49,300 bases of DNA from Candidatus Zambryskibacteria bacterium RIFCSPHIGHO2_01_FULL_46_25 (GTDB lineage Bacteria > Patescibacteriota > Minisyncoccia > Phycocordibacterales > Zambryskibacteraceae), in NCBI GenBank assembly GCA_001825155.1, contig MHVH01000006.1:70939-120238 (forward strand). The letters run 5' to 3'. A program made the translations under genes and the position numbers. This document shows, piece after piece, positions 47,756 to 49,300 of the stretch; position 1 is the first letter of the stretch; each line of letters begins with the position of its first letter. The notes under the pieces are model-generated. The model was not told the origin of the DNA and searched no databases. It was given only the letters and a program-made list of their open reading frames with translations.

Positions 47756-48325
47756 ATGTCAATCATGACGAGTCGGCAAGCTTCGGAACTCGACTTCGCA
47801 TTCGAGCGCAACGGGTGGACGTCGGAAGACGTCAAGAGGGTGAGCGGCGGCGATTTGCTCGCCACGCTTCTCCTCGTCGTGCGCGGAGCGGCCGAGGTGG
47901 TGGTGAAGATTATCACTCGCACGGTCAAGGTCGACCGCAGCCGCACCGCGGCCGAGGTGATCGACGCCACGGGCCGGGTCAAGTGGTATATCGACCAGGA
48001 AGCCCTGGCCGAGATGCCGCTCGACGGCAAGTCGGAGGACACAGTCGAGTTCTTTGAGCTCAACTATGACCCTTCCGTCGACGAGCTCGACCGCGAGTAC
48101 GAAGCTCGCGGTCTGCGTCCCGACCCCGCGGCCGTGGCGCAAGCCATGGCCGACGACCCCGCCTTAGCCGACGAGCGCCCCGTTGGTGTTCAGTGGCGAG
48201 ACGCTCGAGATCGAGCTTGCTACGCGATCTTCCACCGCGACGTTAGCGAGCACTACGTCGTCTTCGTCAACCGGTTCGACCACAGGTGGCTTCGGCACTA
48301 CCGCTTCGCGGGCGTCCACAAGTAG
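47756..48325 (+). CDS. DGR target protein with C-terminal variable region
   Basis: SD AAGGA; 189 aa; the last 35 codons align with the TR. Confidence 0.9.
   Translation: MSIMTSRQASELDFAFERNGWTSEDVKRVSGGDLLATLLLVVRGAAEVVVKIITRTVKVDRSRTAAEVIDATGRVKWYIDQEALAEMPLDGKSEDTVEFFELNYDPSVDELDREYEARGLRPDPAAVAQAMADDPALADERPVGVQWRDARDRACYAIFHRDVSEHYVVFVNRFDHRWLRHYRFAGVHK
48218..48322 (+). repeat. DGR variable repeat (VR)
   Basis: Versus TR: 14 of 17 substitutions fall at TR adenines, plus one 3-nt insertion. Confidence 0.95.
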
Positions 48326-48331
48326 CTCCTG

Positions 48332-48367
48332 GGTCTTGGGATTCTAGTTCTTTTGGATCCCTAGACC
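48332..48367 (+). other. Imperfect hairpin just 3' of VR (candidate DGR homing hairpin)
   Basis: GGTCTTGGGATTC ... GGATCCCTAGACC, starting 6 nt after the target stop codon. Confidence 0.5.
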
Positions 48368-48377
48368 TTGGTTCTCG

Positions 48378-48416
48378 GGCCCGGCATTCAGAAATGGATG
48401 TCGGGCCTTTTGTTTT
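48378..48416 (+). terminator. Intrinsic terminator of the DGR target gene
   Basis: GGCCCGGCATTCA-GAAA-TGGATGTCGGGCC (two G-U pairs) followed by TTTTGTTTT. Confidence 0.8.
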
Positions 48417-48644
48417 GCTAAACTAATATCGGTAGTAGGCAAGTGCGGGCGATTAAGGTTCCCCGCCGCTGAATCCAGTATCCATGCATCGAGAATTTCC
48501 TAGACCAAGGTTTTGGAAAGAGTGGTGCATGCAAACTCAAAAAATGAAGATACTTGGTGCGACAAGCTAACGCATTATAATGCGGAATACGATACAGCTC
48601 TGCGAGCATTCAAAGAGCAGTGGCACAGAAGGCTTGTCGCACGA

Positions 48645-48746
48645 TGCTACGCGATCTTCAACCGCAACGACAGCAAGCGCAACGTCAACGTCAACCGGAA
48701 CGACAACAGGTGGAATCGGAACTACCGCTTCGCGGGCGTCCGCAAA
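48645..48746 (+). repeat. DGR template repeat (TR)
   Basis: 8 AAC and 1 AAT codons in the VR reading frame; invariant GC-rich 3' block TACCGCTTCGCGGGCGTCC. Confidence 0.95.
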
Positions 48747-48751
48747 CCTCT

Positions 48752-49160
48752 TCATTTCTCCTCTGCTTTGGCGGGGGAGTTTTGTTTAATCATCTGATTG
48801 AGCCAGCCACCAATCATTTTCCCAACTTCATCTAGCGGTTCTGATATCAAAATATACTTCTTATTATCTATAGACTTTATCTCCCATAGAACCATGAGCA
48901 GAATCTTCAAAACCTCAAGTTTGCGAGAAGAATTTTCTAGGTGTATAGACTGCTTTTCTCTGGGCGAAAAGGTTGCCACAGCAATGCTTTCTATAATTTC
49001 TAAAAATAACTTATCTATCTTATTGCCGAGCGTGTATCGATTTACTTGGGGTAAAATTACATGAATCTTATGCCAAGCGAGATAAACATTTTTGATTCTG
49101 CTCAAAACTCCCGGCAAAACTCGTTGGGGGGGGGCTTTTAAGAGGTTCAGTCATAGACAT
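48752..49160 (-). CDS. avd: Avd-like four-helix-bundle accessory protein; ATG-initiated N-terminus out of frame at the C9 tract
   Basis: YLAW...LPQVNRYTLGNKID...LEVLKILL...LDEVGKMIGGW. Intact frame is 48752..49117 (TTG start); with C8, ATG 49160 gives MSMTEPLKSPPQRVLPGVLSRIKNVYLAW. Confidence 0.85.
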
Positions 49161-49300
49161 GATGATATCATCTCTGTCGAAAATCTTCTCGAGGCCTGGA
49201 AAGAATTCATAAGAGGTAAGAGGGGCAAGAGAGATGTCCAAGAGTTCCAGCTTCATCTCATGGATAATATTTTTTCGTTACATGAAGATTTAAAGAATAA
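49061..49300 (+). CDS. DGR reverse transcriptase, N-terminal part (3'-partial; frameshifted at the G9 tract)
   Basis: DDIISVENLLEAWKEFIRGKRGKRDVQEFQLHLMDNIFSLHEDLKN resembles the N-terminus of DGR/group II-type RTs. Catalytic motifs lie beyond the window. Confidence 0.8.

Follow-up and report, generated by a model that had tools for sequence, protein, structure and literature searches.

The final 1.6 kb of a 49,300-nucleotide stretch of the genome of Candidatus Zambryskibacteria bacterium RIFCSPHIGHO2_01_FULL_46_25 (hereafter the window, meaning this whole stretch, C6:70939-120238, the end of which is also the end of contig C6) harbour a diversity-generating retroelement (DGR), consisting of a target gene with a variable region (VR), a template region (TR), a reversed gene (avd) for the accessory protein Avd and a reverse transcriptase (RT) gene (Table 1). 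A run of nine G residues (G9; C9 on the minus strand) is situated in the head-to-head overlap of avd, encoded on the minus strand, and RT, encoded on the plus strand. The 101-position alignment of TR and VR contains 16 mismatches, of which 13 fall on TR adenines, such that the pair differs at template adenines as is characteristic of a DGR. No Pfam family was matched by the target gene product. The predicted accessory protein is recognised by its match to Pfam family PF22296 (bAvd; 50.7 bits, cut-off 40, 2.9e-13), and covers positions 5-103 of the 104 positions of the NCBIfam model NF033474 at 60 bits, which is under the cut-off of 80. The predicted RT gene adjoins the TR and carries on from contig C6 into contig C3 via a 70-nt overlap. 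A match to RVT_1 (1.2e-23) was obtained with the RT of a paralogous DGR rather than with that of the window, while the best NCBIfam match is a group II RT below its cut-off, no DGR-specific RT model having been applied.

Table 1. Features of the DGR at the end of the window (positions are those of the window)
Feature	Position	Strand	Basis or remark
DGR target gene	47756..48325	+	Open reading frame, 189 amino acids; VR in its C-terminal end
Variable region (VR)	48218..48321	+	Alignment to TR
G+C-rich hairpin, 14 pairs	48377..48408	+	Scan for terminator-like structures; ~50 nt past the target gene stop
Template region (TR), many AAC codons	48645..48745	+	Open reading frame listing and TR/VR alignment
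avd body, own frame	48752..49125	-	TTG 49117 start in the open reading frame list, 121 amino acids
RT 5' segment ahead of the tract	49061..49125	+	ATG 49061; ATG 49070 within conserved ATGCCA
G9 homopolymer (C9 on minus strand), proposed slippage switch	49126..49134	.	Gly codons in RT, Pro codons in Avd
avd 5' segment on the far side of the tract	49135..49160	-	Conserved ATG 49154-49152, second ATG 49160-49158
RT body	49135..49300	+	Leaves the window at the end of C6; resumes in contig C3, to C3:899

The G+C-rich hairpin following the target gene presumably stands where DGRs carry a hairpin after the VR. Another terminator-like hairpin (48758-48779) directly follows the TR and falls on the stop codon of avd, which runs towards the TR, and could terminate the TR transcript as well as the avd mRNA.

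The G9 tract and the reading frames of avd and RT

As assembled, the frame from the plus-strand ATG at 49061 (with a second ATG at 49070) reaches a stop codon at 49139-49141 after 26 amino acids, while the RT frame itself is open from TTG 49092 to beyond the window end. On the minus strand, the open reading frame (ORF) running from 49256 down to 49068 contains both ATG 49160 and ATG 49154 and ends at 49068, and the avd frame is open across the C-tract, where it codes for Pro-Pro. A tract of G8 or G11 fuses ATG 49061/49070 with the RT frame and also fuses ATG 49160/49154 with the avd frame, which is out of frame with C9. The codons of the two genes are mutually aligned across the strands in the same register, with the avd ATG at 49154-49152 standing opposite an RT His codon and the ATGCCA at RT ATG 49070 forming the antisense of an avd Trp-His pair. 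The preliminary description of this locus had placed G9 at 49126-49134 in a head-to-head overlap in exact codon register, with both ATG frames broken at G9 and restored at G8 or G11, and these statements are confirmed by the sequence, the ORFs and the frame tables. The tract is positioned between each ATG and the conserved body of the respective gene, so that, with these starts, a simple repeat is predicted in the 5' coding part of both, as in contingency loci.

Long G or C runs are rare in this 581,808-bp genome, with nine runs of at least seven and just four of at least nine. Two of the latter four fall at the genome's two DGR avd/RT junctions (G9 here and G10 at C1:25277-25286). The second, paralogous DGR (C1:24306-26759; L002/L006) comprises a target gene, TR, reversed avd and RT with ~74 % DNA identity. 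It likewise needs G8 or G11, and its RT frame as assembled has no ATG, GTG or TTG start whatsoever. The contig break at the window end was probably caused by the repeat between the two DGR copies.

Two other readings of the junction were considered and set aside. The G-run is located at the avd/RT junction and not at the TR or VR ends, which speaks against a DGR homing or priming signal. A purine-rich motif after the tract could be taken as a site of ribosome binding for an RT start further on, but no in-frame start follows it in window-like loci; outside these loci, an RT ATG does follow the motif past the tract.

The repeat and the translation starts among relatives

RT homologues were found in 41/86 genomes of the family and 153/401 sampled genomes of the class. 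From these, 75 related avd/RT junctions were examined together with those of the window and its paralogue (77 in total), and after exclusion of three cut at contig ends and one containing an N, 73 could be evaluated. A poly-G of seven to fourteen residues is present at the junction in 61/73 (G7, 1; G8, 8; G9, 27; G10, 13; G11, 7; G12, 3; G13, 1; G14, 1), in line with the earlier expectation that homologues would retain the tract at lengths both in and out of frame (11/61 with avd in frame). From the density of such runs in the genome of the window, ~0.002 would be expected by chance in a search window of the size used at the junctions. A different simple repeat occupies the same spot in 6/73, namely (TTGG)10, (TTGCTGA)3, (GA)10, (GA)7, (GT)13 and (TG)10. 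The remaining 6/73 have no repeat inside the search region, among them L073 with an interrupted run, L055 with G5 and L075 with an inserted element. The poly-G repeat stays pure C/G despite the synonymous codons available for Pro and Gly, and the swapping of the homopolymer for unrelated kinds of repeat points to instability, and not G-richness or a Pro/Gly motif, as the property that is kept. The tract is neither a chance occurrence nor an assembly slip.

Some individual junctions depart from this layout. At L075 (G364:C33), an inverted-repeat insertion of ~100 nt parts avd from RT, ~110 nt ahead of the RT start; the avd frame there codes for His-Thr repeats, so that a CA/TG repeat is probably present upstream of the search region. 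In L073 (G303:C12) and the public Avd proteins P0043, P0054 and P0060, the N-terminal extension is in frame with the C-run either missing or broken up, and from their sequences these look like locked-ON alleles. A DGR clade of 50 % identity (L047, L049 and L050) lacks the repeat. The start codons of avd and RT in two of its loci, L047 and L049, abut and overlap in the palindrome CATG, a layout which may represent the ancestral head-to-head arrangement.

From the proximal ATG, avd is in frame in 6/40 poly-G loci of the family set and 5/21 of the class set (11/61 overall), and three further family-set loci are in frame from a distal avd ATG. Among the loci with non-G repeats, L035 is in frame, L042, L069, L071 and L083 are out of frame, and L031 is in frame from a distal ATG only. 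The downstream ORFs are intact. Across the loci, losses and restorations of the frame are confined to the repeat, as in contingency loci, with 11/61 repeat-bearing loci in frame versus 5/5 evaluable repeat-less ones. The registers in the class sample are near even (5, 9 and 7 of 21). The single conserved out-of-frame register of a programmed frameshift is not apparent, since each of the three registers is represented and in-frame alleles are common.

The evidence places the start of avd on the far side of the tract. The RT His residue five residues ahead of a conserved Ile-Ile-Ser is encoded by CAT in 31/31 loci having this His, compared to 49 % CAT usage genome-wide, and this retention of CAT preserves an ATG on the avd strand. 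No ATG, GTG or TTG follows the tract in the reading direction of avd in 8/29 loci, and the Leu codon matching TTG 49117 is TTA or CTA in some relatives. Across the tract the avd frame codes for Pro-Pro(-Pro) in all loci; the same extension at the N-terminus is found in frame in public Avd homologues that lack this Pro run, and all five evaluable repeat-less loci are in frame from the far-side avd ATG. Taken together, the CAT bias, the missing near-side starts and the in-frame extensions indicate that avd begins beyond the tract, at 49154 in the window. In the public gene calls of the best 120 Avd homologues, 62 begin at or after a conserved Leu-Pro motif, 44 read through Pro-Pro(-Pro), ten have the extension with no Pro-Pro, and four could not be anchored. 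The in-frame TTG codons raised earlier as possible alternative starts (49117 for avd and 49092 for RT) are present with G9 and are not conserved among relatives; it is possible that some Avd or RT is made from them at G9.

The position of the RT start divides the poly-G loci into two groups. An in-frame RT ATG is found ~13-32 nt past the tract in 30/61, which make up most of the class sample, and in these the tract lies in avd only. No RT ATG occurs past the tract in the other 31/61, the window included, and in 29 of these 31 an upstream RT ATG opens an ORF that reaches the tract. The shift required by RT is the same as that required by avd in 29/29 of these loci. Eighteen loci encode Trp-His in avd, with His as CAT in 18/18, yielding ATGCCA on the RT strand. 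The codons TTA, CTA and TCA in avd are stops in the aligned antisense RT frame, and in these eighteen loci they account for 1/62 avd Leu/Ser codons between the tract and the Trp, as compared to 136/372 elsewhere in the genes (Fisher p = 4.6e-10, a value that overstates the support because related loci share ancestry, which also holds for other p-values on this set and counts against the interpretation developed below). There is no such depletion in the seventeen loci without Trp-His (15/62 vs 110/357). The avoidance of antisense stops in the Trp-His loci argues that the RT extension is held open by selection, with the tract inside the RT coding sequence. As assembled, the RT has no in-frame ATG, GTG or TTG in 8/18 window-like loci. 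Many of the best 120 RT homologues have a long N-terminal extension running through Gly-Gly(-Gly). One of these RT proteins, P0129, is in frame across the tract, and its N-terminal residues recur in the RT ORF ahead of the tract in L009, an ORF that G8 leaves out of frame. Joint in-frame states of avd and RT are seen in L007 (G8), L044 (G8) and L052 (G11), and also in L019, where G9 is offset by a compensating 1-nt change in the flank. The proposal of the preliminary description that one slip toggles both genes agrees with the frames of the 29 loci with a shared shift, and does not extend to the 30 poly-G loci with an RT ATG after the tract, in which only avd would be affected. On the basis of these frames, the dual-gene tract appears confined to the subgroup of the window and a 50 %-identity clade (31 loci), with avd alone predicted to be frameshifted elsewhere.

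Tract lengths in public data and other runs in the genome

The stretch is present in 20 public groundwater or soil runs from eleven studies, all represented by contigs and none on record as RNA, and four runs from four studies (X1, X2, X3 and X7) were compared. A G8 contig occurs in X1, X2 and X7 (depths 14, 18.7 and 11.7, respectively), a G10 contig in X1 (depth 14) and G9 in X3. The G8 contig in X2 and X7 spans 49104-49300 and carries two single-nucleotide polymorphisms (SNPs; 49156 G>A and 49172 C>T). In X1, X2 and X7 contigs stop at 49133, inside the tract, as is expected from a branching assembly graph. The Joint Genome Institute (JGI) metagenome contig L084 has G9, and a metagenome pattern scan for this locus at other tract lengths returned L084 alone and no new length. 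Repeat number therefore varies among near-identical sequences, as the G8, G9 and G10 contigs are ~99 % identical to the window. G9 is a real allele, being present in the X3 contigs and L084, and the earlier concern that every sequence would prove to be G8, with G9 an assembly error, is dispelled by these contigs.

G8 is likewise a real, assembled, in-frame allele. The public Avd protein P0001 (167 amino acids) is identical over 121/121 residues of the body and 38/40 of the extension, and codes for Lys-Ser-Pro-Pro-Gln across the tract, in frame as with G8. The public RT protein P0123 (355 amino acids; eleven member sequences) is identical over 21/21 residues from ATG 49061, codes for Leu-Gly-Gly-Ala across the tract, and is identical over 297/298 residues to the RT part encoded on C3. 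The substitutions that the SNPs at 49156 and 49172 predict are seen in both P0001 and P0123. Over the VR zone (48203-48348), the contigs of X1, X2 and X7 are fragmented into 114-146-nt pieces, with longer assembly of the flanks. Populations heterogeneous in the VR would give such a pattern, contigs being no proof of it.

Neither a MutS_V domain (PF00488) nor a MutL domain (PF01119) was found in this genome, which is 96.4 % complete, while identical searches matched 11/14 control genomes. Loss of MutS and MutL would increase repeat instability across the genome. A further long run, G10 at C5:40146-40155 (L085), is located five codons past the ATG of a gene of ~790 amino acids, which encodes a signal peptide, a right-handed beta-helix and a bacterial surface immunoglobulin-like domain. 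The assembly shows this gene with a broken frame that G9 would restore, a layout that looks like that of a classical phase-variable surface protein. The sole genus-level homologue is uninformative, with the match internal to a larger protein and no tract. The runs C9 at C7:3684-3692 and G8 at C3:37571-37578 fall in seemingly non-coding or poorly coding DNA.

A candidate frameshift switch on DGR hypermutation

The interpretation favoured here, with a probability of roughly 70 %, is that G9/C9 is a hypermutable repeat kept by selection in the 5' coding part of avd, where it would act as a slippage frameshift switch on the DGR. RT (from ATG 49061/49070) and avd (from ATG 49154) would each begin on a different side of the tract and traverse it towards one another, their codons being aligned, the tract in the subgroup of the window being also inside the N-terminal extension of RT. 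Through slipped-strand mispairing at replication, the gain or loss of one G:C pair would shift both genes jointly, and the failure to find a MutS or MutL makes frequent slippage likely here. G8 or G11 would be ON for both genes, while G9, as in this assembly, and G10 would be OFF, or at most leaky via weak internal starts, with loss of the proteins in the OFF state and reversion within a lineage. In the Bordetella DGR, Avd and RT jointly make the mutagenic cDNA. On this basis, the tract would make hypermutation a heritable, stochastic and reversible state, such that VR diversification may be limited to a subpopulation. The switch is best read from these frames as dual (avd and RT) in the lineage of the window and as acting on avd alone in most of the class. 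On balance, though with somewhat less assurance, a class-wide (Parcubacteria/Paceibacteria) mutational coin-flip gating DGR hypermutation is also favoured, built on an old avd repeat with at least six replacements and an antisense RT extension in one lineage, where one base pair would toggle both enzymes.

Several observations weigh against this interpretation. In-frame loci are scarce, with avd in frame in 11/61 and both genes in 4/29, where random lengths predict one third, so that either OFF is favoured or expression has no need of an in-frame length; possible causes of the shortage are selection for OFF, common descent of the flanks together with a modal tract length of nine, or leaky decoding. 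The 121-amino acid product from TTG 49117 spans positions 5-103 of the 104 of the Avd profile, and an Avd without the extension is possibly functional. The upstream RT ORF of L011 contains a stop, and L072 is without an upstream ATG ORF. A scan of 48300-49300 for sigma-70-like promoters from which the overlapping 5' ends might be transcribed gave no sites, versus 1.4 expected. The tract-length evidence is at the level of contigs, which hide minor variants, and G8 with its two linked SNPs may represent a co-existing sister strain and not switching within a clone.

The alternative that survives best, though it is unlikely, is that the tract varies in length but out-of-frame loci go on producing Avd and RT by way of internal starts (TTG 49117, TTG 49092 or near-cognate codons), so that only the level or N-terminal form of the proteins would be tuned. 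This would accommodate the near-complete profile coverage of the TTG-started Avd, the 62 of the best 120 public Avd homologues called from after the tract, the 50/61 loci with avd out of frame, which is odd for an essential ON state, and the repeat-less Avds of L047, L049 and L050, which have just five to six residues ahead of a conserved Pro-Ile-Leu motif. However, it requires internal starts that are often missing, for RT in 8/18 window-like loci and for avd downstream of the tract in 8/29; the Leu at the TTG 49117 site is TTA or CTA in several loci, and no Shine-Dalgarno-like motif is seen ahead of TTG 49117 or TTG 49092. Furthermore, the far-side ATGs and open frames are maintained by selection.

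It is very unlikely that the tract is a recoding site, at which transcriptional slippage or +1/-1 ribosomal frameshifting yields a fixed in-frame fraction, with length variation in the DNA being neutral. RNA polymerase is prone to slip on runs of at least nine, tRNA-Pro has a +1 site in CCC-C, and the states are uneven, with 31 loci one base over the in-frame length, 18 one under and 11 in frame (a hand tally placing 60/61). Against this stand the six loci with di-, tetra- or heptanucleotide repeats, which are typical of replication slippage and not of polymerase or ribosome slippage, the lack of a single conserved out-of-frame register, as the class sample illustrates, and the commonness of in-frame alleles, including the 44 of the best 120 public Avds that read through Pro-Pro.

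Mutational decay, with the tract as a hot spot of DGR inactivation and the out-of-frame loci as young pseudogenes of no adaptive role, is highly improbable. The majority of loci are out of frame, and small genomes without mismatch repair gather homopolymer indels, as this explanation would have it. A harmful hot spot would nevertheless be purged by synonymous changes, whereas the pure run is kept in 61/73 junctions down to ~50 % RT identity or replaced by other repeats, the ORFs on both sides of the tract are intact and under codon-level selection, and two such loci are retained in the genome of the window. Extremely improbable is a homopolymer sequencing or assembly error, the true length always being in frame: poly-G is error-prone on Illumina machines, but G9 occurs in two independent contig sets (X3 and L084), differing lengths are seen at depths of 11.7-18.7, near the flank depth, and non-homopolymer repeats are out of frame too (L042, L069, L071 and L083).

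As a slippage switch, the locus resembles the poly-G/C contingency loci of Neisseria, Campylobacter, Haemophilus and Bordetella, with ~8-14 G:C pairs in the first codons, a length that differs between close relatives, and a frame broken at the tract only in an otherwise intact ORF. It differs from them in that the genes to be switched encode two enzymes of a mutagenic retroelement, and not surface or restriction functions, in that one tract is read on both strands by antisense-overlapping genes, and in its host, an uncultured groundwater bacterium with a very small genome (Parcubacteria/Patescibacteria). In the hifA/hifB fimbrial switch of Haemophilus influenzae, TA repeats lie in a shared divergent promoter. 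There, as here, a single simple repeat between divergent genes governs both, but by promoter spacing, whereas the repeat considered here is within both coding frames or, in most of the class, within avd only. Phasevarions are based on phase-variable DNA methyltransferases. They similarly place a repeat-driven switch atop a system that itself generates population heterogeneity, but their effect is epigenetic and spread over many promoters, where the outcome here would be the targeted diversification of one protein. Homopolymer tracts are presented as a general switch in the abstracts of three papers (PMC2831843, PMC8355987, PMC5084427).

The element is of the same type and gene set as the candidate-phyla-radiation DGRs of architecture B3, and the gene set of the window, with its reversed avd, agrees with the account that Wu et al. 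(2018, PMC5758913) give. Their text makes no mention of homopolymers, phase or simple sequence, and that of Roux et al. (2021, PMC8144416) none of frameshifts, homopolymers or phase variation, the supplements of both being outside this check. Unlike in the accounts given in these two texts, a tract and a head-to-head coding overlap are described here. No published repeat switch of a DGR was found in the literature, including a 2023 review and a 2026 preprint, a search whose coverage extended neither to Paul et al. 2017 nor to supplements. DGR surveys score elements merely as active or inactive, as in passages of Roux et al. (2021, PMC8144416).

The regulation of DGRs is largely unknown, and a repeat switch in avd, with or without RT, offers a testable mechanism for the largest environmental DGR clade, under which the state of the tract is predicted to correlate with VR diversity in metagenomes. 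It would also account for avd and RT genes often being mis-started or called broken, as in the 62 of the best 120 public Avd calls that start after the tract. The locus would further represent a compact natural case of two antisense genes under one frameshift switch, and evidence for contingency loci in uncultured bacteria without detectable MutS or MutL. If true, the tract would constitute a second-order evolvability device, a heritable and reversible on/off for targeted mutagenesis, and would explain the 'inactive' look of many environmental DGRs.
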